A stretch of 64,000 nt of DNA from Thermoplasmata archaeon. GTDB taxonomy: Archaea; Thermoplasmatota; Thermoplasmata; Thermoplasmatales; ARK-15. The translations under genes were made by a program, and so were the position numbers. This document shows positions 16,862-58,265 of this stretch, one piece after another. The stretch covers positions 788 through 64,787 of the forward strand of contig JAVZSA010000001.1 of assembly GCA_038880255.1 (NCBI GenBank), written 5' to 3'. The notes under the pieces are model-generated. The model was not told where the DNA came from and ran no database searches. It saw only the letters and a list, made by a program, of their open reading frames with translations. The first letter of the stretch is position 1, and the number at the start of each line of letters is the position of its first letter.

Positions 16862-17428
16862 GTGAGTTTTATGGATATTATTGATGAAATAATAGAAACC
16901 GGGAAAAAATTGATGAGTTTCAATATGGTGGAATCATCCCATAGCGGTAATATTAGTGCTAGAGTAGGGGATTATATGTATATAAAAAAGCATGGGAAAA
17001 TGGTGGGTTTTTTGGAAAGATCGGATATAATGAAGCTTGATTTAAAAAGTGAAGAGGGATATGAAGGTGCATCAGTGGAAGTTTATGCACATAAAAACAT
17101 ATACCTTAACACAGATGCTAAGGCAATAATCCATGCACATACACCCTACGCAATAGTTATGTCAATTTTAATGGATAGGATTGAACCTGTTGATGAGGAG
17201 GGTAAGTTTTATCTTGAATATATTCCAATAATAAAGGCTGAGAGAGCGGTGGCATCAATGGAAATAGCTGAGAAATTAGGAGAGGTATTAAGGGATAATA
17301 TGGTAGCTGTGGTAAGCGGCCATGGTACATTCGCCAGAGGGGAAAATCTTGAAGAGGCTCTGAAATATCTTACCTTGTGTGAAAGTATATCCCACATTTC
17401 ATACCTTTTCCATCTTTACAAACGTTGA
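16862..17428 (+). CDS. Class II aldolase/adducin-family protein
   Basis: SHSGNISAR and HAHTPYA motifs are typical of the fuculose-phosphate aldolase / MtnB fold. Confidence 0.7.
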   Translation: MSFMDIIDEIIETGKKLMSFNMVESSHSGNISARVGDYMYIKKHGKMVGFLERSDIMKLDLKSEEGYEGASVEVYAHKNIYLNTDAKAIIHAHTPYAIVMSILMDRIEPVDEEGKFYLEYIPIIKAERAVASMEIAEKLGEVLRDNMVAVVSGHGTFARGENLEEALKYLTLCESISHISYLFHLYKR

Positions 17429-25855: not shown

Positions 25856-27049
25856 TTAAATAAGATCTTCGAATTCTTTTACAAGTTCTGGATATTTCTT
25901 TTGGACGGCATCAAGTAGACTTTTCACAGATATGGATGTGAGTTCCACTGAAGATATTGCGTCAACAAGTTTATTTAATGTTTCATCTGAAAGTATAGAT
26001 AATTTTTCTTTTGCAAACCAATTCCTTAAATGTTTTCTTTCGAGTTTTTCTCTCACTTTCTTTTCATAATGCTCCTTTAGAAATTCCTTACTTGTATTAT
26101 TCGATTTTATTGCTTCATATGCTACCTCTCCTGCCAATTTACCAGATATACAGGCGTTCGCTACACCTCCACCAGTTATTGGATCAATTAACCTAGCAGA
26201 ATCGCCGACAAGCATTACATTATCTGTGACTATGCTATTTGGCATTGCACAAGTTGAAACTGCCCCTGTAATTATTTCAATTGTTTTTCCTTTTTTTAAA
26301 CCTGGATGTTTTTCAATAAAATCATCTAAGTATCTTTTTACCTCTCCCTTTTCTTTCAATTTATTTAAAGCTACACCAATTCCAACATTAGCCTCATCCT
26401 TTCCTTTTGGGAAAACCCAGACATAACCACCAGGTGCACAACTACCAAGATAAAAATCAGTAAAATTTTTGTCAATATCTATACCTACCATTCTATATTC
26501 AATACATGAGACAATATCCCTATCCTTTAACATCGTGTTTATTTTTGCCCATCTACCTACTTGACTTTCAAATCCATCTGCTCCAATTATTATTTTTGCA
26601 CGTACTTCCACCTCTTCACCCATCCTTCTTATTTTTGCACCTACCACTTTATTATTTTCCTTTATTAGTGAAATCGCAGGACTTTTTACCCAAATATCAA
26701 CACCTTCTCTTGCAGCTAACGCAGCTAAATATTTATCAAATTTATCTCTTTCAATTATATAACCCACCTCATTGCCTGCCTTGTTTGCAGAAAGTTTAAT
26801 GAATGTTTTTTCATCTGGGGGGAATATCCTTGCGCCTTCAACTTCATTTGAAATCCAGTTCTTTTGCGGTTCTATTTCCACTTCAGGTAACCAATTCTTA
26901 GAAATACCTTCTCCACATCTTACTGGTGATCCAATATCAGGTCTTTTTTCTACCATTAGAACTTTTAAATTGTGTTTTGCTGCATACCTTGCTGCTGAAC
27001 TGCCACCAGGGCCAGCACCTATAACAAGAACATCATATTCATATTTCAT
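25856..27049 (-). CDS. Geranylgeranyl reductase (digeranylgeranylglycerophospholipid reductase family)
   Basis: FAD-binding GxGxxG (DVLVIGAGPGGSSAA), the RCGEG motif and a 397-aa length typical of archaeal GGR. Confidence 0.85.
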   Translation of the reverse strand: MKYEYDVLVIGAGPGGSSAARYAAKHNLKVLMVEKRPDIGSPVRCGEGISKNWLPEVEIEPQKNWISNEVEGARIFPPDEKTFIKLSANKAGNEVGYIIERDKFDKYLAALAAREGVDIWVKSPAISLIKENNKVVGAKIRRMGEEVEVRAKIIIGADGFESQVGRWAKINTMLKDRDIVSCIEYRMVGIDIDKNFTDFYLGSCAPGGYVWVFPKGKDEANVGIGVALNKLKEKGEVKRYLDDFIEKHPGLKKGKTIEIITGAVSTCAMPNSIVTDNVMLVGDSARLIDPITGGGVANACISGKLAGEVAYEAIKSNNTSKEFLKEHYEKKVREKLERKHLRNWFAKEKLSILSDETLNKLVDAISSVELTSISVKSLLDAVQKKYPELVKEFEDLI

Positions 27050-27222
27050 CTAAACCACTCCGCTGATATTGCCCCCATTGGGCATACTCTTATACAAAAA
27101 CCACATTTTGTACAGGAATTTTCATCAATTGAAATCCTAGTTTCATCAAGGAAAATGCAATTTACTGGGCAAGATCCAACACATGCACCACAATAATTGC
27201 ATTTTGATGTATCTACATTCAT
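27046..27222 (-). CDS. 2x[4Fe-4S] ferredoxin
   Basis: Two CxxCxxCxxxCP motifs (CNYCGACVGSCP, CTKCGFCIRVCP). Its stop overlaps the GGR start by 4 nt. The start is placed at MNVDTS (27222). The ORF-track start is 27246. Confidence 0.8.
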   Translation of the reverse strand: MNVDTSKCNYCGACVGSCPVNCIFLDETRISIDENSCTKCGFCIRVCPMGAISAEWFR

Positions 27223-27226
27223 CAAT

Positions 27227-28789
27227 TCACATCCCTTCCGTTCCAACTACATTTCCATATCTTTTTCTATATTCTTCTAGAGTAATTGAGAATTTTTTCT
27301 CCACTTCTGTCCTATAAACTGGACCTGAGTTGTATGCACAAAATGGAATTATTCTGCCATCGGGTGTTGCATAATGTATAACACACCTTTTTAGTCTTTC
27401 TAAATCATAGTTGTACTCATCTTGGAAATGCATTGCTCCAATGAAAAGTGAATCCCAGTGTAATTTGCCCAGGGAATCCTTAGTACCCTCACTAAATATG
27501 TTTAATATTTCTTTCAATTTAAAGTGAGAGGGTGCTTGTGATTGATCATAATATTTTTTGAAAATTCTGTAAAGATACGGGATAGTAAATACCTTTGACC
27601 TATTCTCAAATTTTGTCTCTATTATTTTAGGACTTAATTCTTCAAGAAGACCTTCTACATTTATGAATCTTGTAATAGGAATCACTTTTTTCTTATCGTA
27701 ATCCATAAATACGTAAGTGGCTGTACCACAATGTGGATGAGAAGTGAACGCTACATATGGATGCTTAAAAAGTTGTGATGCAAGTTCTGAGAATAGTGCA
27801 GCAACAGGGATTGGGAAAAAGTCACCCTTTTCAAAATAGTCAGTTTGATTAATCAAATCCTTTATTAGGTCACCCTGGGTATATCTACCCACTATTAATT
27901 CCTCCTGAGGTATTCTTCCTGCGAATGAGACAGGTTGGAAATTAACGGACCTAATCACATCAAGATTATCAAGGCCAAATTGTATAATTTTCCCCACCTC
28001 ATCATCATTAACACCCTTTACAATGACTGGAACAAGAACTGTGGCAAGAGGTTTTGGTTTCGTATGTCTTAAATAATCCAGGGCCTGTAGTTTTTCCTTT
28101 AAAAATCCAGGTCTGTTTCTAGTTTTAATATATGTGCTATCCTTGAAACCGTCAAATTGTAAATACACTGTATGTAAGCCTGCATCTAACATTTTCTGTG
28201 CAAAATCTGGTTCATGAGCTATTCTAACACCGTTTGTTGCAACTTGAATCTGGGCAAATCCAAGTTCCTTTGCCTTTTTTATTACCTCAAGAAAATAAGG
28301 ATATATGGTAGGTTCTCCACCAGCAAATTGAACAGCAGGTGTGGGTACAGGTTTTTCATTCCTTAACACTTTCATCATTTCCACTACTTGCTCAAATGTA
28401 GGTTCATAAACATAACCGGCAGCATTTGCATTTGCAAAACATATTGGGCATTTTAGATTGCACCTATTAGTAAGATCAATGTTTGCAAGCGATGTATGAC
28501 TATAATGTAATTCACATAATCCACAGTCTAATGGGCAATTTATACCCTTTATTTGGGGATTTTCCACACCTATACCATCAAATGCCCATTTTTCATATCT
28601 TAAATATGTTTCAACATCACCAAAATATATGTCCTTAAATTCACCATGTTCTGGACATGTTTTTTTATACATTACCTTCCCATCCTCTTCATAAATAGTT
28701 GCAGGTATCACTTTTTTGCACACAGGGCATATGGATTGCGTATCTTTTGGTAAACCTTTTTTTAATTTTGACTGCTGTATTATGTACAT
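27227..28789 (-). CDS. Radical SAM enzyme, tetraether lipid synthase (Tes / GDGT-MAS)-like
   Basis: N-terminal Zn ribbon (CPVCKK...CPEHG), the radical SAM motif CNLKCPIC in TNRCNLKCPICFANAN, and VQFAGGEPT. It is cotranscription-compatible with the ferredoxin and GGR genes. The family assignment comes from remembered sequence patterns of MJ0619-type proteins. Confidence 0.6.
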   Translation of the reverse strand: MYIIQQSKLKKGLPKDTQSICPVCKKVIPATIYEEDGKVMYKKTCPEHGEFKDIYFGDVETYLRYEKWAFDGIGVENPQIKGINCPLDCGLCELHYSHTSLANIDLTNRCNLKCPICFANANAAGYVYEPTFEQVVEMMKVLRNEKPVPTPAVQFAGGEPTIYPYFLEVIKKAKELGFAQIQVATNGVRIAHEPDFAQKMLDAGLHTVYLQFDGFKDSTYIKTRNRPGFLKEKLQALDYLRHTKPKPLATVLVPVIVKGVNDDEVGKIIQFGLDNLDVIRSVNFQPVSFAGRIPQEELIVGRYTQGDLIKDLINQTDYFEKGDFFPIPVAALFSELASQLFKHPYVAFTSHPHCGTATYVFMDYDKKKVIPITRFINVEGLLEELSPKIIETKFENRSKVFTIPYLYRIFKKYYDQSQAPSHFKLKEILNIFSEGTKDSLGKLHWDSLFIGAMHFQDEYNYDLERLKRCVIHYATPDGRIIPFCAYNSGPVYRTEVEKKFSITLEEYRKRYGNVVGTEGM

Positions 28790-28852
28790 TAAATATTCAC
28801 CTGATCTAAATTTATTGTAAAAATCAATATAATAGTTTTGTCATATTTATAA

Positions 28853-29476
28853 CTACAAATTTGCAGAAGGACAAAGATCATTTACTGGGCATTCTTTACA
28901 TTTTGGTTTAACAGGTCTGCAAATCTTTTTTCCAAATTCAACAAATAGGGAATTAATCATATTCCAATATTTTTTATCGAGAATTTTCATAAGTTCCTTT
29001 TCAGTATCCTCAGGTCTTTTAGTGTTTACCCAGCCAAGTCTATTCGAGATTCTATGGACGTGGGTATCAACTGCAATGTATTTCTTATCGAAACAGACAG
29101 ATAATACAATGTTTGCTGTTTTTTGTCCCACGCCAGGAAGCTGAATTAATAAATCCCTTTCACTTGGTACTTTCCCATCATATTTTTCTAAAAGCAACCT
29201 TGCAATTTCCTTAATTCTTTTCGCTTTTTCTCTGTAGAATCCAATGGGTTTCAGTAAATTTTCTAAATCCACAGGATCAGCATTAGATAAACTTTCTAAA
29301 TCGGAATATTTTTCAAATAATCTCTTTGAAACAATTTCAGTTATTTCATCCTTTGTTCTTTGAGAAAGCACTGTGGCTAAAAGGACTTTCCATGGATCAC
29401 TAAATGGTATACGATGCGGTTTTATCACTTTAGAAATCCTTTCAATTATAATTTCAATATTATTCATAGTGATCAC
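28853..29476 (-). CDS. nth: Endonuclease III (HhH-GPD DNA glycosylase with Fe-S cluster)
   Basis: HhH motif LPGVGQKTANIVL, catalytic region VDTHVHRI, and C-terminal Cys cluster CRPVKPKCKECPVNDLC. Confidence 0.85.
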   Translation of the reverse strand: MITMNNIEIIIERISKVIKPHRIPFSDPWKVLLATVLSQRTKDEITEIVSKRLFEKYSDLESLSNADPVDLENLLKPIGFYREKAKRIKEIARLLLEKYDGKVPSERDLLIQLPGVGQKTANIVLSVCFDKKYIAVDTHVHRISNRLGWVNTKRPEDTEKELMKILDKKYWNMINSLFVEFGKKICRPVKPKCKECPVNDLCPSANL

Positions 29477-31218
29477 CTAAAAACATAAGCTGGGCAAGGA
29501 CCTAAACACTTTGTGCAATGTATGCAAGAATCCTCATTTACCCATACCTTTCCATTATTCAAAAAGAGAGCATTTCTCTCACATCTTCCTGTACATATAC
29601 CACAACCAACACACTCTTCAGATTGATAAATAACTTGCATTGCCTTTTCTATAAAATTTTTATGGACATGTAGATCATCATCAAGAACACCATTTGGAAG
29701 GATATTTTTAATATTTTTTAATCTTTCTAAATTAAGATTTTTATTTGGGATTAACTTAAAATTCCCATTCTCTTCTTTTATTTGTAGTATTAATGATTGT
29801 CTAACATGATCATTGATAGAATATTTTCTTTTTAAAAATTCTGGTATTTTATTCCATCTCCATAAACCATATTCTACCCATTCCTCTTTCAAATTATTTT
29901 TTAAAGCATACTCTCTAAGATATGAATCCCATTTTTCATAAATTTTACTTTTTGAAACAATTGAAAGATCAGCGAGATCCTGTGATGGGCACATAAAGCA
30001 ACCAATTCTCCATAGCCCCCTATCATACCAGCTATTATATTTCAATTTATGCATAAAAATGTAAAGCCAAATCATAAAAGAATCCCAATTTTGTATTGGG
30101 CTTATTCCTATTTGATTTGGGACCCATTCATTTTCCCAAATATTTCCTGAAAATGATCTTGATGAACTTTCATATGCTCTTTGGCCTATCACCATATAAA
30201 TTTTTTCATTACCCAAGGATTTAATATATCTTGTTGTTGGTCCCAATTTGCATACTTTGCAACACCATCTATAATCTCTTCCAGGAGGACCAAAATGCTC
30301 AAGATTTTTAAAAAACGCATCACCTGCACTTATAATATCATAATTTAATGAAAATTCTTCAAGCATATCTTTTACATAATCTTTTGTCTCTTTAAATTCC
30401 AGACCTGTATCAAGAAAAACTACTTTTGGTTTAATTCCAGCTTTAAGTGTTAAATGTAAGGCCACTAAACTATCTTTTCCCCCACTGAAAGATACAATTA
30501 TTTTTTCATTTTTAAATTTTCTTAAAAATTTTATTGCCTTTTCTTCTGCCTTTTTCATATACGTTGCATTTCCTTCAATTACATCTTTAATACTTGATTC
30601 TTTAAGTTTAATATTTTCCTCTTTAATAACATATTTTATTTTTACTGCCATTCCCCTATTTATTAAATGTTCTTTATCTATTTTAGAAATCCCTAAGGCA
30701 AAAACTTTGTTTTCCGGAGTCTTTATGAAGGCATCATTACCTATTTTTACATTTTCACCTAATTTAATAACACCTGGTGCCATAAGATTCTTACCATTTT
30801 TTATGGAATCAATTGCGCCTGGATCTGCAGTTATAAAAATATCCTTCAGATAATCCTTTACAATATTGTAAAAAATCGGTTTTAATGAGACTCTTAATGA
30901 CATATTTTCATGTATTAAAGTTGCAATCACATTTCCACCCACAATTATTTCCACCGTTCTATCTGGGCCAGGTATTCTATTTAATACTACTACATATTTT
31001 GAAAAAATTTCCGAAAATTTATTTTTTAAAATTGGTAAAAAAGCATCGTCTAAAATTTTCCAATCATTTTCAAGAGGAAATTTGAAATCACCAGGTGGTG
31101 TTAAATTTACTGTTCTTGTTGGGTAATTGCATCTACCGCATCTTTCACCAATAACAGGTATATTGCAATTATCGCACCATTTTAATCTTATTTTTCCGAG
31201 GAAAATTGGCTTTGACAT
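29473..31218 (-). CDS. Zn-ribbon / PUA / PAPS-reductase-family PP-loop ATPase / 2x[4Fe-4S] fusion protein
   Basis: N-terminal CxxC...CxxC, a PUA-like segment (NLMAPGVIKLGENVKIGD), PP-loop VSFSGGKDS, and a C-terminal ferredoxin (CVGCGICTGRC...CIHCTKCLGPCP). Confidence 0.7.
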   Translation of the reverse strand: MSKPIFLGKIRLKWCDNCNIPVIGERCGRCNYPTRTVNLTPPGDFKFPLENDWKILDDAFLPILKNKFSEIFSKYVVVLNRIPGPDRTVEIIVGGNVIATLIHENMSLRVSLKPIFYNIVKDYLKDIFITADPGAIDSIKNGKNLMAPGVIKLGENVKIGNDAFIKTPENKVFALGISKIDKEHLINRGMAVKIKYVIKEENIKLKESSIKDVIEGNATYMKKAEEKAIKFLRKFKNEKIIVSFSGGKDSLVALHLTLKAGIKPKVVFLDTGLEFKETKDYVKDMLEEFSLNYDIISAGDAFFKNLEHFGPPGRDYRWCCKVCKLGPTTRYIKSLGNEKIYMVIGQRAYESSSRSFSGNIWENEWVPNQIGISPIQNWDSFMIWLYIFMHKLKYNSWYDRGLWRIGCFMCPSQDLADLSIVSKSKIYEKWDSYLREYALKNNLKEEWVEYGLWRWNKIPEFLKRKYSINDHVRQSLILQIKEENGNFKLIPNKNLNLERLKNIKNILPNGVLDDDLHVHKNFIEKAMQVIYQSEECVGCGICTGRCERNALFLNNGKVWVNEDSCIHCTKCLGPCPAYVFR

Positions 31219-44078: not shown

Positions 44079-45194
44079 TTGGTGAAATTTGATACAAAAT
44101 TTTTAAGAATAATAATTGCTTGGTTAATAACATTTCCAGAAATATTCATTAGACTTGTTTTTAGTGTTACAATAATTCCAATAAAGGAATCATTAAATAT
44201 TAATTATTTTTTTGCCTCACTCCTTTTATCTTCCTTTTATATAGGTTATGCATTATTTAATTTACCCATGGGACACTTTGTGGATAAATATGGATACAGG
44301 GTGATATCTGCATCCCTTATATTTTTAGGCATTTTTTCAATAATTTTTTCATTTTCAAAGAATTATTATATATCACTTTTTTCAATGTTTATGTTGGGAG
44401 TATTTTCTGCACCTACATATATAGGATCCATTAAAATTGTTTCAGAAAAAGAAAAAAAGTTTAGGGCCACTGCAATAAGTCTTTTAAATACTGCAGGCCC
44501 TTCTTCACTTTTAATCACTAATATTTTTTTGACTGGGAATTTATCCTTAATAGATTGGAGATCAGTTTATGTTTATATTTCAATAGTTGCATTTGTAATG
44601 TCCATCCCTCTTTTTTTTATTAAAAAATTTGATGAAAAAAATGTAAAAAATGCAATAAATAAAAAGTCAATACTCGCTGCATTTGTAAGATTTTCAGGAT
44701 TTTGGGGTATGTGGGGTATCTCTACCTATTTGTTTTTATTATCTCATTTAGAGTTTAACCTTAGTTATATATATTCAGGTTTAGTCTCAGCCATTTTTTC
44801 ATTAGGTGCAATCCTATCCATTCCAATTTCAGGTATAATATCTGATATTTTTAAAAATAGGAAAGGTGTATCTTCAATCTATTTAATCTTATTTTTTATT
44901 CTTTTGATACTATTCCCATTTATTGGACCATACTTTATGTTTCCAATATCATTTATATTGGGTTTTATTTCATTTGGGTATAGGACACCTTTAGATGCAT
45001 TCATTTCTGAAATTACAAAGGGAAAGGAAGCAACTTCAATGGGTTTGGCAAATCTTATTTCACAACCAAGTCTTATAATCGTTCCAGCAATTATAGGAGC
45101 TATAATCACTTATACAGGCAATATTTTTCTTTCATTCATTACACTTTCAATTGGCCCACTTGTGGCTTTTATAATTTTAAGAATAATAGATTAG
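44079..45194 (+). CDS. MFS-type transporter
   Basis: 371 aa, about 10-12 TM segments, and an MFS-like loop motif (GHFVDKYGYR). Confidence 0.65.
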   Translation: MVKFDTKFLRIIIAWLITFPEIFIRLVFSVTIIPIKESLNINYFFASLLLSSFYIGYALFNLPMGHFVDKYGYRVISASLIFLGIFSIIFSFSKNYYISLFSMFMLGVFSAPTYIGSIKIVSEKEKKFRATAISLLNTAGPSSLLITNIFLTGNLSLIDWRSVYVYISIVAFVMSIPLFFIKKFDEKNVKNAINKKSILAAFVRFSGFWGMWGISTYLFLLSHLEFNLSYIYSGLVSAIFSLGAILSIPISGIISDIFKNRKGVSSIYLILFFILLILFPFIGPYFMFPISFILGFISFGYRTPLDAFISEITKGKEATSMGLANLISQPSLIIVPAIIGAIITYTGNIFLSFITLSIGPLVAFIILRIID

Positions 45195-46069
45195 TCTAAA
45201 AATTTTTTTACACTTTCAGAAATTTCAATAATTGCTTTAGTTGCAATTGATTTGGGATTAAACAACACTAAAGGTTTTTTATATGCAAGCGATTTTGAAA
45301 CATTTTCGTCGTAGGGAATTTCCCCTAATATTTCAATATTATTTTCACTTGCAAATTTTTTAATTCCATCAAATCCTGGATTTATATTACTCTTATTCAA
45401 AATTATATAGGATTTTATTCTAAAATGATAAGTGAGGGAAAAAATCCTTGAAAGATCACTCAGGCTGGATTCTGTTGGTTCTGCTACCAATATTGCATAA
45501 TTTGCACCACTTACTGAGGCTATTACTTGACATCCTATTCCCGCCGCTGAATCAACTATAAGATTTTTTACCTTTCCATCTCTTATCCACTCTCTTGCAA
45601 TCTTTTTTTCTTCTGTAACCAGTTTACCACTATTTGGCTGACCCACCTCAAGTTCAGAGGTAATAAGAGGTCCATACTTCGTACTTGAAATTCTGATCCA
45701 TCCTGAATGCTGATCTTTTATTATTTCAATAGCCTTTTTTGGGCAAACTACTTTACAGGCTCCACATCCTTCACATACATAATCCCTTATCTTCAACAAA
45801 CTATCGTGATAAATTGCTTCATATGAGCAATTTTTTTCACAGATTAAACACATATCACATTTGGAATAATTTACCACTGCAACACTTTTATTTCTATAAT
45901 CAATCTCCTTTTCCCAGTTATTTATGTCAAATATTAAATGCAGATTTGGTGCTTCAGCATCAGCATCAACTATCCCTATTTTTTTGTCACTTAAAATTAC
46001 TGATAATGATGAGGATATAGTACTTTTTCCTACTCCTCCTTTCCCACTTGCCACCACTATTTCCGCCAT
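45191..46069 (-). CDS. MinD/ParA-superfamily P-loop ATPase with inserted 2x[4Fe-4S] ferredoxin domain (COG1149-type)
   Basis: Deviant Walker A SGKGGVGKST, with inserted CDMCLICEKNC and CEGCGACKVVCP motifs. Confidence 0.8.
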   Translation of the reverse strand: MAEIVVASGKGGVGKSTISSSLSVILSDKKIGIVDADAEAPNLHLIFDINNWEKEIDYRNKSVAVVNYSKCDMCLICEKNCSYEAIYHDSLLKIRDYVCEGCGACKVVCPKKAIEIIKDQHSGWIRISSTKYGPLITSELEVGQPNSGKLVTEEKKIAREWIRDGKVKNLIVDSAAGIGCQVIASVSGANYAILVAEPTESSLSDLSRIFSLTYHFRIKSYIILNKSNINPGFDGIKKFASENNIEILGEIPYDENVSKSLAYKKPLVLFNPKSIATKAIIEISESVKKFLD

Positions 46070-46911
46070 AATAAATGCACCACCTTATTTGAAATATCTG
46101 AGAAAATCCTTGATTCATCACTTTCCGGGAACATTTTCACTACTGGAATACCACTTATATAACTTTTTAATATTTTATCGCTTACCTGTATTTTTCCTAT
46201 AAATTCAACCCCATTTACATTGGGAATTTCATCCACAATGTTATATCTATTCATTATGCCATATCCAATTTTGTTTTGTTTCTTTAAAAGATCAAAAATT
46301 TTTTTAAGATCGTGCAAACCTAAAGGTGTTGGTTCTGTTACTACAATTACAAGATCTGAGTCTTCAATTGCTGCTGCCACATGGTTTCCAGTTCCGGATG
46401 ATGTATCAAAAATTAAAATATCGTGGGAGATCTCAAAAGCCCTTTTTTTTGTAGAAAGTACAAGAGGATAGGATCTTTCCTCTCCTTCGTTGAGTATACC
46501 GGAAACGAGTGTAAAATTTTCATTAACTTTTGTTACATAAGTATGACCTATGATTTTTTTATCCTCCTTTACTGCCCCAACTGGACATACAAACTTACAG
46601 GTTTTACATCCAGTACATAAAGTAGGCATTAGAAATGGATAACCATTACTAAATAATATTATTGCATTTTCTGAACAGTTTTTGGCGCACAAAGAACATT
46701 TTATACATTTTTCATAATCAAATTTTGGCTTAAATATGTGTTCCTCTCTTTCGTTATCTAGTTTTGCAGAGAGTAATATATGATCATTTGGGCATTCCAC
46801 ATCCACATCCGCCAAAACGACATTAAATTTTTTTGAAAGTTCCCAGGCTAAATTAACAGCGACGGTACTTTTTCCCGTTCCACCTTTTCCTCCAGTTACA
46901 GTAAAAATCAT
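46057..46911 (-). CDS. MinD/ParA-superfamily P-loop ATPase with inserted 2x[4Fe-4S] ferredoxin domain (COG1149-type), paralogue
   Basis: Deviant Walker A GGKGGTGKST, with inserted CIKCSLCAKNC and CTGCKTCKFVCP motifs. There is a 13-nt overlap with the downstream paralogue. Confidence 0.8.
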   Translation of the reverse strand: MIFTVTGGKGGTGKSTVAVNLAWELSKKFNVVLADVDVECPNDHILLSAKLDNEREEHIFKPKFDYEKCIKCSLCAKNCSENAIILFSNGYPFLMPTLCTGCKTCKFVCPVGAVKEDKKIIGHTYVTKVNENFTLVSGILNEGEERSYPLVLSTKKRAFEISHDILIFDTSSGTGNHVAAAIEDSDLVIVVTEPTPLGLHDLKKIFDLLKKQNKIGYGIMNRYNIVDEIPNVNGVEFIGKIQVSDKILKSYISGIPVVKMFPESDESRIFSDISNKVVHLLWRK

Positions 46912-46917
46912 ACAGGG

Positions 46918-47322
46918 TCAATAGGGACCAAATCTCCCACGATGTCCGAATCCTCTGCCCATTCCAGGACCTCTCATTCCTGTAGCCGGGGGTAATTTTC
47001 CTTCAAAAAACATTTTAATTGATTCTTCAACAGTGATTGCGGGGCTTTCTCTCATATCAATACCATTCATTGAAAGTACTTGAAAAGAGTTTGGGCCTAT
47101 TGAGCCAGCAATTACCACATTACATTTTTCATTAATTATCAATTGTGCAGCTTGAATTCCTGCACCACTCCCAGCAAATGAACCTGGATTTTGAATTATA
47201 CTTACATTTTTAATTTCTTCTTTTTCCGCATCCACTATTGTAAATGTAGGGCATCTTCCAAACTGTAAACTAACAAAATCTTTCAAACCTCCAGTACCTG
47301 AAGTAGCAAAACATATTCTCAT
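46918..47322 (-). CDS. NifX/NifB-C-terminal-like (dinitrogenase FeMo-cofactor-binding fold, COG1433-type) protein with Gly/Arg-rich tail
   Basis: MRICFATSG...HFGRCP-like FGRCPTFTIVD...AGSGAGIQAAQLI...VIAGSIGPN. The C-terminal tail is GMRGPGMGRGFGHRGRFGPY. The start is placed at MRICF. The ORF-track start is 47370. Confidence 0.7.
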   Translation of the reverse strand: MRICFATSGTGGLKDFVSLQFGRCPTFTIVDAEKEEIKNVSIIQNPGSFAGSGAGIQAAQLIINEKCNVVIAGSIGPNSFQVLSMNGIDMRESPAITVEESIKMFFEGKLPPATGMRGPGMGRGFGHRGRFGPY

Positions 47323-47373
47323 TTGAAACACCAAAAAAGAAAATGAATTAAAATATTTTAGGTTTACCAAAAA

Positions 47374-47655
47374 TTACTTTTTCAGTTGATCAAGTCTCCT
47401 TTTTACATCTTCAAGTCTTTCCTGGAGATATTTGTATTCATTTTCTAATGCCTCCTTCTCATCATATGTTTCTGGATTAAATCTTTGCCAAGGACTGTAA
47501 TACCACCAATAGCCAGGATAGTTATAACCATATGGTGTATATGTTCCGTAATATGGATAATTTAGCCATCTTGCACCTCTTGGAAGACCAGTCCATGGGC
47601 AATAGCCTAATGTTGCTCCCCAACCTTTTCCTCTACCACCAAACCAACCCAACAT
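47374..47655 (-). CDS. DUF5320-like small protein (Gly/Trp/Tyr/Pro-rich N-half, coiled-coil C-half)
   Basis: MLGWFGGRGKGWGATLGYCPWTGLPRG, then a Tyr/Trp/Pro-rich stretch, then EKEALENEYKYLQERLEDVKRRLDQLKK. This matches the remembered DUF5320 layout, and the protein sits first in the COG1433/COG1149 cluster. Confidence 0.55.
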   Translation of the reverse strand: MLGWFGGRGKGWGATLGYCPWTGLPRGARWLNYPYYGTYTPYGYNYPGYWWYYSPWQRFNPETYDEKEALENEYKYLQERLEDVKRRLDQLKK

Positions 47656-47739
47656 ATCTAATCACCTTATTACTCAAATGTGTAAAAATATATAAATTTT
47701 TTGTCATTCTTATACATTAAAATTTTTAACAAATTTATA

Positions 47740-49242
47740 TTAGATTTTATATTTATAAATCAAAGTTTTACATAATTCTAAATTTTTTCTCGCATTTTCA
47801 AAATCTTTGTCCAAAGAAATTGCACTTTCATATTGTTTTATCGCCTGTTCAAGAAAATTTTTCCTTTTTTTCTTATCCTTTTCAATTAATGCCATTTTTC
47901 TATAGCAGTCCCCCATCCCAGCATATGAATATTTTAGTGATGGATTTAAAGATATAGATTCCTCATACTTTTTGATTGCCTTCTCTAAAAATTCCATTTT
48001 TTTATTTAAATTATTTTCAATATTGGCTAAGTCTAGTAATCTATTTCCCATATTATGATATGGAAATGAAAATAGTGGATCATATGAAATGGATTTGTCA
48101 ATTTCTTCAATCGATTTATAAATGTACATTTTTTTCTTTTCTTTGTTTTTAATATTTTTACTCATAAGTGCATAACAAATTGAGAGACCATTATATGATA
48201 AGGAATATTTACTATTTATTGATAAAGCATTTTCAAAATTTTTAATAGCATTTTTTAAATATTTATCCCTTTTTTCATTGTCACTCTCTATTTTATATAG
48301 ATCAATGAATACATTTCCAATACCATTATACGCATGAATAAACTCCCCATCAGTTTTTATACATTTTTCAAATTCTTCTAATGAAATTTTCAAGAATTCA
48401 ACTTTTTCATCTTTATTGACAGTAATTCTTGACATTTCTAAATATCCTTCAGCCTTTCCATTATGCAGATATGTATTAAGAGGATCAAGATTAAGACCCA
48501 AATTAAAATAATCTAGAGCCTTTTTAATTAAATCAATCTTTTTGTCTTTACCACTTTTATTTTTAAAAATTTCTAAATAGGCATTTCCAAGTCCTACATA
48601 ATTTTCAACAATTCTTTCATCCATTTTCATTGATTTTTCATACTCTTTAATTGCCATTTCAATATTCTTTAATCTTTCATTTTCGTTCCTATTGAATCTT
48701 GATAGTATCAAGTACACGTTACCTTTGCCATTATGTGCTAGAGGATCATCATAAAATTGTATTAATAAATCATATTCTTGCAAAGCATTCAAAAGAAGAA
48801 TATTTTTTGAATTTAAACTAAATTCAAGTTTTGACAGTTCATAGTAACAATTACCTTTACCATAAATAGCAATCCTAATTTTTGGATCTATTTCACATAC
48901 ATCTGAAAAAATTTTCAGTGCATTTTCAAAAAATTCTTTCCTTTTTTCTATTTCATTTTCAAGAAGACCGAATTGATATAGACATTCGCCCTTTCCTGAA
49001 TACAATAATGGAAAATCCTTATTTAAAGAAATACCATTCTCAAATTCTTTTAAGGCTAAATCTAATAAACCTTTTTTTCTAATTCTATTATTCTCAATCT
49101 TTACTTCTTTTAATAAAATGACTCCTTTTAAATAATTGGAGAAATAAAGTTCATTATTTATGGCTAGTGAATTGTTCAATTCTTTTAAAGCACTTTCTAA
49201 CAATTCTTTTTTCTTACCTAAAGAAATTACACTTTTTTCCAA
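47740..49242 (-). CDS. TPR-repeat protein (fragment 4 of a split NTPase-TPR gene, TTG start)
   Basis: Many TPR-like repeats (..Y.GKG.CY...G....A...F..A..I.P..). The reading frame stays open 54 nt upstream of the called TTG start and overlaps the end of the preceding ORF. Confidence 0.7.
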   Translation of the reverse strand: MEKSVISLGKKKELLESALKELNNSLAINNELYFSNYLKGVILLKEVKIENNRIRKKGLLDLALKEFENGISLNKDFPLLYSGKGECLYQFGLLENEIEKRKEFFENALKIFSDVCEIDPKIRIAIYGKGNCYYELSKLEFSLNSKNILLLNALQEYDLLIQFYDDPLAHNGKGNVYLILSRFNRNENERLKNIEMAIKEYEKSMKMDERIVENYVGLGNAYLEIFKNKSGKDKKIDLIKKALDYFNLGLNLDPLNTYLHNGKAEGYLEMSRITVNKDEKVEFLKISLEEFEKCIKTDGEFIHAYNGIGNVFIDLYKIESDNEKRDKYLKNAIKNFENALSINSKYSLSYNGLSICYALMSKNIKNKEKKKMYIYKSIEEIDKSISYDPLFSFPYHNMGNRLLDLANIENNLNKKMEFLEKAIKKYEESISLNPSLKYSYAGMGDCYRKMALIEKDKKKRKNFLEQAIKQYESAISLDKDFENARKNLELCKTLIYKYKI

Positions 49243-49253
49243 TTCATATATTG

Positions 49254-50105
49254 CTATTGCCTTAAGTATGTATGAATCAAAGAATATGTGATTTTTTCAA
49301 TTGAAATATCAAATTCTTTTATTGCATTTTCAAAATCCCCTTTTTCCAAATGATTAGCACCAGCAAAAAAATGGTAAAATTCATCATCATTACTTGAGAC
49401 TGAATTATTTATATATTCAAGAATTTTTAAATTTGTATTCTCCATTAAATTTAATTTATGAAGGGAATTGAAATAAGAAATTATTATTTTTCCTTCTGGT
49501 GATTCTCTACCATACTCCTTAAAAATGAACGGAATAGAATAGAAATTTTTATCATTTAAAGACATTAATAATGGAGTGTAAGCATAACTTCCTTTTCCCT
49601 TTTCTTTTAATAATGCTAGAGGTGTGAGATAAGAATAAATATATTCAAGGCTAGGTAAAATTTTGGGAAGAAGTTTTAATGAACTAACACCATTGGTAAT
49701 TAGAGTATACCAAATAACAAGGTTAATGTTATCTTTAAAGTATGGAATTTCCATATTATTAATTAAATTTTTTACATAGGATTTTGCTTCCTGAGCTATT
49801 TCATTAATATATGATACGAAATTCTGAAATTCTAAAATATTTTTTTTCAATTCTTCTGAAATTTCTTGTGGAATTATATATTCACCATCAATTTTTTCAA
49901 AAATTGATGTATCAATATTAAAATTTTTAATTATAATTTCATCAATTGGAAATTTAGTACCAATGTATATAATAAGTAAATTTATTTTATTATATTTATT
50001 TAGTATATGTTCAATATAATACTTTTTAGCATCTATTTCCAACAAATTAATTAATTCTGAAGGATTAATTTCTTCTAACATAATTGAAAAAGTCTTACAA
50101 AACAA
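49254..50105 (-). CDS. Hypothetical helical protein (fragment 3 of split gene)
   Basis: The frame is open upstream of the called TTG start as far as 50297, overlapping the stop of the preceding ORF. The C-terminal residues (GANHLEKGDFENAIKEFDISIEK) already look TPR-like. Confidence 0.6.
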   Translation of the reverse strand: MFCKTFSIMLEEINPSELINLLEIDAKKYYIEHILNKYNKINLLIIYIGTKFPIDEIIIKNFNIDTSIFEKIDGEYIIPQEISEELKKNILEFQNFVSYINEIAQEAKSYVKNLINNMEIPYFKDNINLVIWYTLITNGVSSLKLLPKILPSLEYIYSYLTPLALLKEKGKGSYAYTPLLMSLNDKNFYSIPFIFKEYGRESPEGKIIISYFNSLHKLNLMENTNLKILEYINNSVSSNDDEFYHFFAGANHLEKGDFENAIKEFDISIEKITYSLIHTYLRQ

Positions 50106-50281
50106 ATAAATTTCTGATATTGTATTAAAATGAAATTTATCTATAAATCCCCCTTCTTCAAATAAATTCCATTTTTCTTCAGGTAAAATTAACCTTAAAA
50201 ATTTTAAAATTAAATCTTTGGTATAATCTTGCCATTCAAAAAGAACTACATGATTCCCTGTACTGTTTAATAAATAAAATT

Positions 50282-50902
50282 TTATGGGTCCAAAAATTCA
50301 ATTAATTTTAAATTCAAATTATATGAAGAGTCAACAATTGAAATTAAATTAGGTATAGGATATTCAGGTATGTAATTTTTTGTAATTATTAAAGAATCTT
50401 GCATTAACCAATTCATAATACCTCTGTGTTTTTCTTTCAAAAAAATTGATTTTTTAAAATATTTCTTTAAAATTAAACTGATAAATATTATATTATCTAC
50501 TCTATTCTCAGATTTGAGAATTATTGTACCCTTTTGAAGAATATCCCATGATTTTTCAATGCTTGGGGCTATTAGATTATCAATATCTTCAATTAATTTT
50601 TCAAATAATGGTACATTACCTAATAAATTTATAGATTCATTAAAATTCAATTCCATAATGGAATTTTTTAAATTCATTGTTAAATTTTTGACAAAACTAT
50701 CAAGCTTTTCAAGAATAAAATCAAAGTTGTTAAGTGAATTTAGACAATCATAGACATTATTTCTATCAATTTTTAACTCTAAAGAAAATTGAGAAGACAA
50801 AATATGCTTATAATCATCAATCAAATTTTTCCAGTCTTTAATGAATTCTTTAAATTTTTCCCCATAATTTAAGCCATAATCATGATAAAATAAGAGGATC
50901 AA
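50282..50902 (-). CDS. Hypothetical helical protein (fragment 2 of split gene)
   Basis: The frame is open upstream of the called TTG start as far as 51013, overlapping the stop of the P-loop ORF. Confidence 0.6.
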   Translation of the reverse strand: MILLFYHDYGLNYGEKFKEFIKDWKNLIDDYKHILSSQFSLELKIDRNNVYDCLNSLNNFDFILEKLDSFVKNLTMNLKNSIMELNFNESINLLGNVPLFEKLIEDIDNLIAPSIEKSWDILQKGTIILKSENRVDNIIFISLILKKYFKKSIFLKEKHRGIMNWLMQDSLIITKNYIPEYPIPNLISIVDSSYNLNLKLIEFLDP

Positions 50903-53902: not shown

Positions 53903-55858
<1,956 letters not shown>

Positions 55859-55868
55859 GGTGGATGGA

Positions 55869-58265
55869 ATGTCAAATGTTCAAACAAAGACAATAGAAGA
55901 AGAAATGAAATATTCTTACATGGATTATGCTATGAGCGTCATAGTGGGAAGGTCTTTGCCAGATGTGAGGGATGGTTTAAAACCTGTTCAAAGAAGGATA
56001 CTTTATTCAATGTACGAGATGGGTCTTACACATGATAAACCTTTTAGGAAATGTGCTAGGATAGTGGGTGAAGTGATGGGTAAATATCATCCTCATGGTG
56101 AGGCACCAATATATGATGCTCTTGTAAGGATGGCACAACCATTTTCTCTCAGGTATACCCTCGTTCAAGGTCAAGGAAATTTTGGAAGTGTGGATGGTGA
56201 TTCACCTGCGGCCATGAGATATACTGAGGCAAGGATGGAAAGACTTGCTGAAGAAATGCTTGAGGATATAGAAAAGGAAACAGTACCAACGATGCAAAAT
56301 TTTGATGGAACACTAAATGAGCCAATATATTTACCATCAAAGGTACCAAATCTTCTCATAAATGGATCTTCAGGTATAGCTGTAGGAATGGCTACAAATA
56401 TGCCTCCTCATAATATTTCAGATACAATAGACGCAATAATTCATTACATAAATCATAGGGATTGTACCATTGATGAATTAATAGAGATTATTAAGGGTCC
56501 AGATTTTCCAACAGGTGGTGTAGTATTCAATTATTCAGGTCTTGTTGAAGCATATAAAACTGGAAAGGGAATGATAAAAATAAGGGGAAGATATGAAATT
56601 CATGAGAGGGACATTATTTTTACTGAAATACCATATGAAGTAAATAAATCAGAACTTTTAAAAAATATTGGAAGTCTTGTTAAGGATGAGAAAATAAGTG
56701 GTATACAGGGAATTAGGGATGAAAGTAATAAAGAGGGAATAAGAATTGTGATAAGACTGAAAAAAGATGCAAATACTGATATAGTTCTAAATCAATTACT
56801 TGAGCATACCCAGCTTGAAGTATCCTATGGAATAATAAATCTAGCATTAATTGATAATGTTCCAAGAATTTTCAATTTGAAAGAATTAATTTCAGAATTT
56901 GTAAAACATAGGTTTGGTGTAATAACTAAAAAAATTAAATATGATCTAAGGAAAGATGAAGAAAGGGAGCACATACTTCAAGGTTATATTATCGCCTTAG
57001 ATCATCTCGATGAAGTTATTAATACGATCAGATCATCCAAAGATTATGGTGAGGCAAAGGAAGCATTGATTAAAAATTTTAATATGAGTGAAATACAAGC
57101 TAAAGCTGTGCTAGATCTAAGGTTGCAGAGATTAACAGCAATGGAGAGGGAATCGATTATTAGAGAGGAGGAAGAGATTAGAAAGGAAATAGAGAGGTTA
57201 AAGGATCTACTTTCTCATGAAGAAAAAATCTATGATCTAATGGTTAAAGAGTTGTTGGACCTTAAAAAAAGATATGGTGATTCAAGAAAAACAGAAATAA
57301 TGAAGGAAGAATTGGGTAGAAGAGACATTGAAGATCTCATACCCCCAGAAAACTTTGTTGTAACATTTACCAAGGGGGGATACATAAAGAGAATTTCTAT
57401 GGATGAATATAGGTCCCAAGGAAGAGGTGGAACTGGAGTTATAACAGAATATGGGGAAGAGGATTTTCCTGTTCAGGTATTCATAGCGAACAGTCATGAT
57501 AATTTGCTCTTTTTCACAAATAAGGGAAGGGTATATTCATTAAAATGTTATAAAATAGTACAAACATCCAGAAAAGCAAGTGGTAAGAATATAAAAAATT
57601 ATATAGAACTCGATGAAAATGAGGTAGTGGAAAGAATACTTCCAATTAATGAAAAATCTGAGGGAAATATAGTATTTCTCACAACAAAAGGGATTGTAAA
57701 GAAAACATCATTAAAACATTTTATTAATATTAGATCCAGAGGTATTATTGCAATTTCGTTGGATGGAGATACAATAAAAGATGTTTGCTTGGCAAAAGAT
57801 GATGAAGATATTTTCATATTCACTACGAATGGCCAAACTGTAAGATTCCCATCAAAAGAATTGAGAGAGATGGGTAGGATAAGTCATGGAGTGAGAGGTA
57901 TAAAGATAAGGGAAGGTGATAGTGCACTTTCAATCTCATCTGTTAAACCTGATGATTTAATCCTTACAGTAACAGAGCTTGGCAGAGGAAAAATAACAAA
58001 GGTAGAAATGTTCAGAAGAACACATAGAGGGAAAATAGGGATTAGGGGCCAAAGAATCAATGATAAGACTGGAAAACTTGCAGGAGCAATAAAAGTTGTA
58101 GAAAATGATGTAATAATGTTACAGACAATAAAGGGAATGACAATACAGTTTTCACTTAGTGAAATACCAGAGCTAGGTAGAAATGCATCAGGTGTAAAAT
58201 TAATCGATCTAAAGGAAAATGATAAGGTGGGGGCGATTACAAGAATTCCATCATTTGATGAATGA
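55869..58265 (+). CDS. gyrA: DNA gyrase subunit A
   Basis: DGLKPVQRR, the active-site region AAMRYTE, and C-terminal beta-pinwheel repeats. The start is at 55869 after GAGGTGGA. The ORF-track TTG start is 55848. Confidence 0.92.
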   Translation: MSNVQTKTIEEEMKYSYMDYAMSVIVGRSLPDVRDGLKPVQRRILYSMYEMGLTHDKPFRKCARIVGEVMGKYHPHGEAPIYDALVRMAQPFSLRYTLVQGQGNFGSVDGDSPAAMRYTEARMERLAEEMLEDIEKETVPTMQNFDGTLNEPIYLPSKVPNLLINGSSGIAVGMATNMPPHNISDTIDAIIHYINHRDCTIDELIEIIKGPDFPTGGVVFNYSGLVEAYKTGKGMIKIRGRYEIHERDIIFTEIPYEVNKSELLKNIGSLVKDEKISGIQGIRDESNKEGIRIVIRLKKDANTDIVLNQLLEHTQLEVSYGIINLALIDNVPRIFNLKELISEFVKHRFGVITKKIKYDLRKDEEREHILQGYIIALDHLDEVINTIRSSKDYGEAKEALIKNFNMSEIQAKAVLDLRLQRLTAMERESIIREEEEIRKEIERLKDLLSHEEKIYDLMVKELLDLKKRYGDSRKTEIMKEELGRRDIEDLIPPENFVVTFTKGGYIKRISMDEYRSQGRGGTGVITEYGEEDFPVQVFIANSHDNLLFFTNKGRVYSLKCYKIVQTSRKASGKNIKNYIELDENEVVERILPINEKSEGNIVFLTTKGIVKKTSLKHFINIRSRGIIAISLDGDTIKDVCLAKDDEDIFIFTTNGQTVRFPSKELREMGRISHGVRGIKIREGDSALSISSVKPDDLILTVTELGRGKITKVEMFRRTHRGKIGIRGQRINDKTGKLAGAIKVVENDVIMLQTIKGMTIQFSLSEIPELGRNASGVKLIDLKENDKVGAITRIPSFDE

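Follow-up and report, generated by a model that had tools for sequence, protein, structure and literature searches.

The orange protein (ORP) complex of Desulfovibrio and the IssA protein of Pyrococcus furiosus are the described systems with which a four-gene cluster from an uncultured archaeon, located on a 64,000-nt stretch of Thermoplasmata DNA (the window) and derived from a genome of about 30% G+C, can be compared. The core of the ORP complex consists of a NifX-like protein and two ferredoxin-containing MinD-type ATPases (Orp8, Orp4 and Orp3) (PMC6345978, PMC8359166). In D. vulgaris, the orp genes are organized in the operons orp5-orp4-orp3 and orp7-orp8-orp9, and the proteins Orp3, Orp4 and Orp8 co-purify and receive iron-sulfur (Fe-S) clusters from MrpORP (PMC6345978). 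The role of the complex is still called unclear by its authors (PMC6345978, PMC8359166). IssA (SipA, PF2025) of P. furiosus is a thioferrate storage protein, and the Fe-S stored by it rebuilds [4Fe-4S] ferredoxin (Vaccaro et al. 2017, PMC5524996); moreover, the isolated NifX domain of IssA binds iron and sulfur (PMC5524996). The four genes of the window are best explained as one operon encoding an archaeal module of the ORP/IssA type, and we regard the homology of the cluster to these systems, as judged from the sequences, as highly probable. The cluster is not an orphan, as its NifX-like protein and its ATPase pair correspond to the ORP core, and the initial annotation, which had considered this gene combination to be without an assigned function, had overlooked the work on the ORP complex and on IssA.

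The cluster comprises four tightly packed open reading frames (ORFs) on the minus strand (47374-47655, 46918-47370, 46057-46911 and 45191-46069, in the order of genes 1 to 4). The previously described extent of the cluster from 45191 to 47655 was thereby reproduced, as were the overlap of 13 nt between genes 3 and 4 (46057-46069), the gap of 6 nt between genes 2 and 3 (46912-46917) and the peptide WLNYPYYGTYTPYGYNYPGYWWYYSPW that had been quoted for the 93-aa product of gene 1. A gap of 3 nt between genes 1 and 2 had also been reported, which requires a TTG start codon of gene 2 at position 47370 and a protein of 150 aa. The true start of gene 2 is almost certainly the ATG at position 47322, specifying a protein of 134 aa (MRICF...), since this ATG aligns with residue 1 of the homologous protein MTH1175, since four sister assemblies call a 134-aa protein from there and since the sequence GGTG stands before it. 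The gap between genes 1 and 2 is therefore 51 nt. The genes are regarded as real because the cluster is present without gaps and with 99.7-99.8% identity in four other assemblies and because its homologues number in the thousands. The family assignments proposed earlier all passed the curated thresholds of Pfam in profile searches, and the titles COG1149 and COG1433 are borne by close homologues in the source records.

Gene 2 (46918-47322, minus strand) encodes a single-domain NifX-like protein (IPR003731/PF02579) of 134 aa that matched the PF02579 model Nitro_FeMo-Co with 71.5 bits (cut-off 26.3). The best match among solved structures was MTH1175 (PDB 1EO1), a structural-genomics protein of Methanothermobacter thermautotrophicus, which aligned over the full length with an E value of 1.5e-24. 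The orange protein of D. gigas (2WFB) matched residues 18-131 with an E value of 2.9e-13, and 1RDU and 2YX6 are further solved relatives. The annotated NifX-like protein with a GRG-rich tail was thus recovered, the tail comprising 24 residues rich in glycine and arginine, with a pI of 12 and without cysteine. The start of this tail (SPGSGRG) is shared with MTH1175, which has a shorter tail and has been placed in the IssA clade (Vaccaro et al. 2017, PMC5524996). The identity of gene 2 to the N-domain of IssA is 36.6%. These comparisons demonstrate that gene 2 encodes a predicted NifX-fold carrier homologous to Orp8, MTH1175 and the N-domain of IssA. The protein does not represent NifX proper, which is encoded together with nitrogenase and nif maturation genes. 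No nitrogenase genes were found within 10 kb on either side of the cluster, and no further NifH/MinD-like or NifX-like ORF was detected in the 64-kb window. This agrees with the initial annotation, according to which nitrogenase genes are missing nearby and the NifX-like fold does not serve nitrogenase at this locus. A nitrogenase-related role was rejected on the same grounds, i.e. the lack of nif genes within 10 kb and of any NifH-like ORF in the 64 kb.

Genes 3 and 4 specify MinD-type ATPases, designated A (46057-46911, minus strand, 284 aa, GGKGGTGKST) and B (45191-46069, minus strand, 292 aa, SGKGGVGKST). Both proteins matched the ParA/CbiA model and several Fer4 models of Pfam above threshold, and both contain an inserted 2x[4Fe-4S] ferredoxin domain, which covers approximately residues 61-119 of A (46555-46731, minus strand) and residues 63-120 of B (45710-45883, minus strand). 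Two CxxCxxCxxxCP motifs had been assigned to each ATPase; the final CP applies only to the second motif of either protein (CTGCKTCKFVCP and CEGCGACKVVCP), whereas the first motif ends in CS (CIKCSLCAKNCS and CDMCLICEKNCS). The ATPases A and B are 31% identical to each other and fall into two orthologous groups that are also paired, with A upstream of B, in Thermococcus and in Thermoprotei. The Walker A motif with the signature lysine, the aspartate residues of the switch and Walker B motifs and the eight cysteine residues are invariant in both groups. Genes 3 and 4 represent an ancient A/B pair of deviant-Walker-A ATPases with two predicted [4Fe-4S] motifs each, and they are homologues of Orp4 and Orp3 with respect to both domain architecture and the order of the genes.

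The two ATPases can be distinguished from the better known members of their superfamily. With the MinD models, they reached scores of 91 and 54 bits for TIGR01969 (cut-off 201.75) and of 61 and 46 bits for TIGR01968 (cut-off 212.9); moreover, both contain a ferredoxin insert of about 60 residues, and the genomic neighbours encode metal-sulfide carriers. The NifH-like models of NCBIfam yielded 32-33 bits in comparison to cut-offs of 350-427, and no stretch of the PF00142 match passes alone. The AlphaFold2 (AF2) model of ATPase B (pLDDT 94.4), in which the final helix lies within the confidently folded domain, has archaeal MinD, FleN, ApbC and NifH as its nearest solved folds, and sequence and fold searches of the PDB revealed no solved structure with a ferredoxin-inserted MinD architecture. 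The deviant Walker A motif with the signature lysine is shared with the SIMIBI ATPases (NifH/BchL/CfbC, Mrp/NBP35/ApbC, CooC and HypB) and therefore implies an ATP-sandwich dimer. The SIMIBI metallocentre ATPases also resemble A and B in their Fe-S chemistry and their metal-centre partners, but the scores of A and B against these families are all far below the cut-offs, and the clusters of A and B are located in an inserted 2x[4Fe-4S] domain of each subunit, whereas the SIMIBI relatives contain one cluster bridging the subunit interface.

Gene 1 (47374-47655, minus strand) encodes a 93-aa protein that matched the DUF5320 model PF17253 with 35 bits (cut-off 27), residues 7-91 corresponding to model positions 11-99. 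Both hallmarks of the family are present, namely the Gly-rich N-terminus with one cysteine (GxGyC) and the C-terminal coiled-coil helix. Residues 1-60 include one cysteine and no acidic residue (pI 9.6, charge +4.5), and this cationic N-terminal half, rich in glycine, arginine, tryptophan, tyrosine and proline, is predicted to be disordered. A confident helix was modelled by AF2 only at residues 66-92 (47380-47460, minus strand; pLDDT about 80), the rest of the protein having pLDDT values below 50. The amphipathic helix, in which seven of the nine heptad a/d positions are hydrophobic and which is conserved among homologues as LENEYKYLQERLxxVKRRLDxLKK, probably oligomerises as a coiled coil. 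The N-terminus follows the consensus GWGATLGYCPWTGLPRGxRW with its single cysteine; across 15 homologues, the string LGYCPWTG and the residues flanking it do not change, in contrast to the freely variable aromatic linker. This start of the subfamily differs from the canonical MPRGDGTGP...GRGxGYC, with the sequences P0276-P0278 bridging the two forms. As DUF5320 is too short and too biased in composition for deep searches, motif- and Pfam-based detection was used. A profile deduced from the 15 closest homologues matched 26 proteins among 1.84 billion representatives and gave no match in the genome loci of distant relatives. A search of the PDB provided no solved structure for DUF5320, and literature searches on DUF5320, on COG1149/COG1433 and on the term 'inserted ferredoxin domain' returned nothing relevant.

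The link between gene 1 and IssA is provided by residues 9-31, GKGWGATLGYCPWTGLPRGARWL (47563-47631, minus strand), a motif that includes the sole cysteine, C19, and resembles the IssA tail. IssA was retrieved as P0156 with 179 aa and consists of a NifX-fold domain and a cationic tail of 70 residues bearing a single cysteine; the composition of the tail equals the published numbers. The motif of gene 1 also terminates the tail of P. furiosus IssA (GRGWGSILGYCPWTGMPSRRALRW), as is apparent from a comparison of the tail end GRGWGSILGYCPWTGMPSRRALRWYYGWW with the start of gene 1, GKGWGATLGYCPWTGLPRGARWLNYPYY. The similarity was detected by BLASTP with the IssA orthologue of Thermococcus barophilus (E 2e-5) and by tblastn with the P. 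furiosus locus (E 1.8e-5), and LGYCPWTG is carried by 80 of the 120 IssA-family proteins. A motif profile of 32 columns, which was built exclusively from 43 stand-alone DUF5320 genes and applied with a threshold of E <= 1e-3, matched 73 of these 120 proteins, including IssA itself (4e-5). The same profile matched none of the 240 decoys that were reversed or tail-shuffled, and no other ORF among about 7,600. The lack of decoy matches compared with 73 of 120 real proteins therefore indicates that the similarity is not compositional. Additionally, the NifX domain is fused to a whole DUF5320 domain including the coiled coil in the proteins P0235 and P0238, and a NifX domain with a Gly-rich coiled-coil extension at the C-terminus was read from the sequence of locus L014, where it was not confirmed by Pfam. 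The profile data demonstrate at the level of sequence that gene 1 carries the cysteine-containing cationic motif of the IssA tail, which had been missed in the initial annotation, as a separate polypeptide.

As gene 1 bears the motif ending the IssA tail and as fusions exist, genes 1 and 2 appear as a split IssA-like pair. Common to gene 1 and IssA is the cationic, acid-free segment rich in Gly/Arg/Trp/Tyr/Pro with one cysteine and the pattern GWGxxLGYCPWTGxPxRxxRW. In IssA, this segment extends the NifX domain at its C-terminus as a fused tail and is devoid of a coiled coil, whereas the window encodes it as a separate upstream protein with a C-terminal helix. Likewise, IssA has the long cysteine-bearing tail on the same polypeptide, whereas gene 2 retains only its Gly/Arg tail of 24 residues. 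IssA is characterised by the formation of thioferrate nanoparticles and by its induction by sulfide together with iron.

A comparison with the ORP system revealed similarities as well as differences. Both systems contain a single-domain NifX-fold protein (Orp8/ORP; E 2.9e-13 for 2WFB), two adjacent paralogous MinD-type ATPases with two [4Fe-4S] motifs each and a small Gly-rich protein encoded directly upstream, and ORP genes are confined to anaerobes and have earlier been suggested to be of archaeal origin. The equivalence to Orp3 and Orp4 (DVU2103, DVU2104) and to Orp5 of D. vulgaris was deduced from published descriptions, from 2WFB and from a cluster of Desulfobacteraceae. Unlike the ORP system, the window contains neither MrpORP (Orp9) nor a second NifX-like gene (Orp7); no Mrp-like ORF specifying the Mrp/NBP35 domain fused to a Di-Nase domain of MrpORP was found in the 64-kb window, and the model NF041136 was matched only partly and far below its cut-off. 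The small protein of the window is a one-cysteine DUF5320 protein with a coiled coil, whereas its counterpart in the ORP system is the multi-cysteine Orp5. Furthermore, all genes of the window belong to one operon with an archaeal TATA box and a palindrome, whereas the orp genes are distributed over two divergent operons with sigma54 promoters and the enhancer-binding protein OrpR. OrpR-like PAS/sigma54 activators flank the bacterial relatives of the cluster. In the Desulfobacteraceae locus L009, which displays the complete bacterial arrangement, the gene order is NifX-DUF5320-NifX, NifX, MrpORP, small Cys-rich protein, NifU_N, A and B, and the first of these genes (1170-2162) encodes a 330-aa fusion protein of NifX domain, DUF5320 and NifX domain within an orp-type cluster. 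The occurrence of the IssA tail motif as a separate DUF5320 gene suggests that the ORP and IssA systems are one machine.

The ATPase pair in turn is connected to IssA in Thermococcales, where issA is linked to and co-induced with genes for the same MinD-ferredoxin ATPases. In P. furiosus COM1, the orthologues of A and B divergently adjoin issA and are apparently frameshifted. As a separate observation, the A/B region of this strain (L087 8099-9817, CP003685.1) is split over three reading frames and was called as five short genes, and one of the fragments may represent the 'SipB' (PF2026) of the sulfur-response literature. The A/B pair is located 4 kb from issA in T. barophilus and 10 kb from issA in Palaeococcus pacificus. 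The five most sulfur-induced genes of Pa. pacificus include those for IssA (PAP_06520), a second NifX-like protein (PAP_06515), PAP_06425 and PAP_06430 (PMC6981617), and gene counting on the chromosome of this species identified PAP_06425 and PAP_06430 as A and B. In T. onnurineus, SipB, which is co-induced with SipA/IssA, is annotated as 'ATPase C-terminus' (PMC4463584). As far as the searchable literature shows, both the link between DUF5320 and the IssA tail and the link between IssA and the ATPases are new.

To define the conservation of the cluster, genome contigs were scanned using one genome per species, and 17 true relatives were recognized among the 80 matches listed; the remaining listed loci represent generic MinD/Mrp proteins and were not used as a control set. 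Among the matches listed, the 17 relatives span Nitrososphaerota, Micrarchaeota, Methanomethylicota, Bathyarchaeia, Methanobacterium and Desulfobacteraceae as well as Dehalococcoidia, Firmicutes, Spirochaetes, Bacteroidota, Planctomycetota and Synergistota. A second MinD-ferredoxin paralogue occurs in all 17 loci, as the immediate neighbour in 16 of them and no more than 6 kb away in the remaining one; a NifX-like gene is part of the cluster in 16 of 17, and a Pfam-verified DUF5320 gene or domain is present in seven; other loci encode a small Gly-rich protein with a CxxC...CxxC end. The converse test, with the DUF5320 motif as anchor in metagenomes, yielded 64 non-redundant loci, 57 of which contain a stand-alone small DUF5320 gene. 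A NifX-like gene is located directly downstream of DUF5320 in 47 of the 51 loci with at least 500 nt of downstream sequence, and the A/B pair follows as well in 21-22 of the 30 motif-anchored loci with at least 2.5 kb. These counts show that the four-gene adjacency is not unique to the window. The claim that the combination recurs in anaerobic archaea and bacteria accordingly held, and the uniqueness that would have spoken against the earlier interpretation was not observed.

Genes recurring in the neighbourhood of the cluster encode FeoB (5 loci), NifU_N proteins (4 loci), regulators of the DUF134 family (8 loci), PAS/sigma54 activators (8 loci), MBL-fold proteins (9 loci) and radical SAM proteins (5 loci). 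The 25 largest families of recurrent neighbours include no Mo/W transporter or pterin gene. DUF134 may be the regulator of the cluster in many lineages. In a Methanobacterium sp. (L022 4626-5246), DUF134 is fused to a Gly-rich segment and a zinc-ribbon-like CxxC...CxxC end as found in Orp5-like proteins. Another small protein of about 75 aa and without a Pfam match combines a Gly/Arg-rich N-terminus (MPRGFGRGYGR...) with subsequent hydrophobic, probably membrane-spanning segments. The respective genes (L158 5144-5380, L155 5146-5382, 11 others and T. barophilus L005 11216-11434) are placed between issA and the second NifX-like gene or directly upstream of the DUF5320 gene, and the protein could tether the store to the membrane.

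In functional terms, the module would handle an inorganic metal-sulfide species, most likely iron-sulfur. This Fe-S reading is supported by the homologies and the co-conservation of the genes, the storage function of IssA, the co-purification of the ORP proteins, the fusion proteins, the synteny, the sulfur co-induction and the FeoB and NifU_N neighbours. With moderate confidence, we favour the interpretation that the cluster encodes a split Fe-S store or carrier of the IssA type that is served by a heterodimeric, redox-active ATPase. In such a mechanism, an anionic Fe-S species would be nucleated or held by the NifX-like domain; this species could be thioferrate-like (FeS2-)n or the precursor of a cluster. 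The oligomeric DUF5320 protein would supply multivalent Gly/Arg/aromatic arms with one cysteine each in trans, wrapping and stabilising this species as has been proposed for the IssA tail. The A/B heterodimer would dock on the carrier and use the binding and hydrolysis of ATP as well as its four [4Fe-4S] clusters to load the store or to mobilise it reductively into [4Fe-4S] clusters for apo-proteins; in this it would resemble other SIMIBI metallocentre ATPases (NifH, Mrp/NBP35, CooC and HypB). The idea of a machine for metallocluster assembly or delivery, which had been put forward in the initial annotation, thus falls into the best-supported class of functions (assembly, delivery or storage). 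Taken as a whole, the earlier interpretation stands with respect to the families, the independence from nitrogenase and the recurrence of the genes; it did not recognize the known systems and the IssA tail motif, and the client that it had proposed was not supported.

Several observations weigh against the interpretation as an Fe-S store with a dedicated ATPase. The Pfam model of DUF5320 gives no score to the IssA tail of Thermococcales, so that the link between DUF5320 and IssA rests on a motif of about 25 residues. Gene 2 resembles the second NifX-like gene of Thermococcales, which has a short tail and comes after issA, more closely than IssA proper. The orange protein of D. gigas, which is the sole relative in this protein family with a defined bound cofactor, holds a Mo-Cu-S and not an Fe-S cluster (PMC6345978), and the orp phenotype has been read by the Desulfovibrio group as a defect of cell division or morphology. 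Moreover, the window lacks genes for MrpORP, FeoB and NifU. Since P. furiosus makes IssA particles despite its apparently frameshifted A/B genes, the ATPases may not be needed for deposition, and their proposed role in loading or reductive mobilisation is drawn by analogy only. Finally, a literature search shows no experiment on this operon or on any DUF5320 protein.

Among the alternatives, a dedicated maturase is unlikely. According to this explanation, the two ATPases and the NifX-like carrier would serve one particular client enzyme, for which they would build or insert a complex metallocluster, in analogy to NifH/NifX/NifEN, CooC or HypB, with the DUF5320 protein as an accessory scaffold. 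The ATPases indeed belong to the SIMIBI class alongside NifH, CooC, HypB and Mrp, NifX-fold proteins carry cofactor precursors, and radical SAM genes reminiscent of a split NifB are located near the cluster in the loci L005, L006, L011, L016, L087, L105 and L162. However, no candidate client gene is conserved beside the cluster across phyla and none is adjacent to it in the window. The cluster also occurs in organisms of very different metabolisms, and bulk storage or detoxification would account for the very strong sulfur induction more readily than the maturation of a single enzyme.

A module for a heterometallic thiometalate of Mo or W with Cu, in which the NifX-like protein would hold a non-covalent cluster of the [S2MoS2CuS2MoS2] type like the orange protein of D. 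gigas and the system would store, detoxify or deliver Mo- or W-sulfide, e.g. to pterin enzymes, is rather improbable. The match of gene 2 to the D. gigas protein (2WFB; E 2.9e-13), for which the non-covalent binding of a Mo-Cu-S cluster has been reported (PMC6345978), points in this direction, but gene 2 is closer to MTH1175 (E 1.5e-24), a member of the IssA clade, and the motif of DUF5320 also occurs in IssA, whose Fe-S storage is proven. The cationic tails would suit an anionic thiometalate as well. The molybdopterin oxidoreductase at 17399-19246, which had been suggested as a client enzyme, is a real gene and speaks for this explanation; it is located 26 kb from the cluster, and since in addition no Mo/W genes recur near the cluster among the 25 largest neighbour families, the link was rejected. 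The recurrent neighbours encode FeoB and NifU_N proteins, the 25 largest families containing neither a Mo/W transporter nor a pterin gene, and the Thermococcales genes respond to sulfur and iron.

The third explanation, a sensor or detoxifier that would sequester toxic FeS or sulfide transiently and signal the redox state without storage, is very improbable as a separate function. The original proposal for SipA/IssA was the detoxification of intracellular iron sulfide (cited in PMC6981617), redox potential switches the orp genes, and the ATPases bear four low-potential clusters. On the other hand, the iron bound to IssA is usable for the rebuilding of ferredoxin clusters, and a Pfam scan revealed no DNA-binding or signalling domain in the four proteins. 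As detoxification and storage are hard to separate, this explanation largely overlaps with the Fe-S store that we favour. Least probable of all is a MinD-like positioning or cell-division system in which the ATPases would place a structure or the septum according to the redox state sensed by their Fe-S clusters, as first proposed for the ORP complex, since despite the MinD proteins being the closest solved folds and sequences and despite the morphological defects upon loss of orp expression and the polar location of MrpORP in D. vulgaris (PMC6345978, PMC8359166), the cluster contains no gene for a MinC/MinE-type partner, no membrane-targeting tail was recognised, the final helix of ATPase B belongs to the domain that was modelled with confidence, the partners found invariantly in the genomes are carriers of metal sulfide rather than division proteins and the ORP authors themselves call the role 'still unclear'. 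The positioning of a storage particle, comparable to that of carboxysomes by ParA-type ATPases, would be compatible with an Fe-S store and is no true rival of it.

The region upstream of gene 1 contains the signals expected to govern expression of the operon. A TATA-like box, TTTATATA (47689-47696, minus strand), with a run of A residues before it precedes the ATG of gene 1 by about 37 nt, and related loci share the box in the form AAAAATTTAWATA. Between this box and the Shine-Dalgarno sequence GGTGA (47663-47667) lies the inverted repeat TTACACATTTGAGTAA (47670-47685; consensus TTACTCAwtTGAGTAA). The repeat was found at the same place before the DUF5320 gene in 18 loci, the DUF5320 proteins of which are only 40-67% identical; it is confined to that position in 1.7 Mb of fetched DNA and occurs once in the window. 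It is a candidate operator of a dimeric repressor, as suggested by its location over the expected transcription start. Expression would then probably be held off by a repressor bound to this palindrome.

The 51-nt spacer between genes 1 and 2 (47323-47373, minus strand) contains T-runs (TTTTT and TTTTCTTTTTT) and a GGTG before the ATG, and it may represent a partial archaeal terminator or an internal promoter, although in an AT-rich genome such runs are weak evidence. Most relatives likewise have T-runs behind the stop codon of the DUF5320 gene, so that more of the small structural protein than of the ATPases could be made, with the same reservation about the AT-rich genome. A short string in this spacer, AACCTAAAAT, is conserved (47355-47364 of the window and L088-L090) and may be an internal TATA-like element for the three downstream genes. 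Scans for sigma-70 promoters and bacterial terminators, which are uninformative for an archaeon, gave no more matches than expected from shuffled sequence.

Other features of the window concern the surroundings of the cluster. The stop end of the gene for ATPase B overlaps by 4 nt (45191-45194) with that of a convergent gene for an MFS transporter (44079-45194, plus strand), which leaves no space for an intergenic terminator. Directly upstream of the cluster lies a TPR-repeat gene (47740-50902, minus strand) that is a single ORF of 1031 aa in three sister assemblies. ORFs of 500, 283 and 206 aa take its place in the window, which differs from these assemblies by 2-4 small indels in this stretch, indicating either a real pseudogene or an assembly error. 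The genes of DNA gyrase B and A (53918-58265, plus strand) are consistent with the assignment to Thermoplasmata. The partial protein P0001, which is 99% identical, was deposited under the name 'Fervidicoccaceae archaeon', probably owing to a binning or naming error. A run of genes at 25856-31218 (minus strand) comprises the gene of a geranylgeranyl reductase and, overlapping with it, that of a 66-aa 2x[4Fe-4S] ferredoxin (27046-27246), as well as genes for a radical SAM protein containing a zinc ribbon of the HMPTM type, an HhH-GPD glycosylase and a PUA-PAPS-reductase-domain protein; none of these genes is linked to the four-gene cluster.

The storage of iron and sulfur in strict anaerobes and the feeding of their Fe-S assembly are poorly understood, and the ORP complex and IssA have each been investigated on their own. 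Fifteen years after the discovery of the former, its role is still called unclear, and the latter is described as a lone protein without known partners. The operon of the window and its relatives tie the two systems together, give DUF5320 a testable role as an IssA tail acting in trans and identify in the ATPase pair (Orp3/Orp4, probably SipB) the component that likely drives the store. The question of what the ORP complex does thereby becomes a testable one, and the operon offers its four genes as a compact unit for anaerobic reconstitution. If confirmed, this interpretation would account for the most strongly sulfur-induced genes of Thermococcales and for the restriction of the ORP genes to anaerobes. 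More tentatively, as a possibility that we consider somewhat doubtful, the ORP complex of sulfate reducers and IssA of Thermococcales could be two faces of one ancient, anaerobe-wide machine. This machine would combine a NifX-fold nucleator with a heterodimeric ATPase bearing four [4Fe-4S] clusters and with a polycationic one-cysteine DUF5320 arm, which is either fused or provided in trans and in many cases forms oligomers through a coiled coil; ATP and electrons would be used to build and dissolve an inorganic iron-sulfide polymer, i.e. an ATP-driven mineral store supplying Fe-S without a cysteine desulfurase. If true, DUF5320 would be the first family of 'thioferrate-wrapping' proteins.

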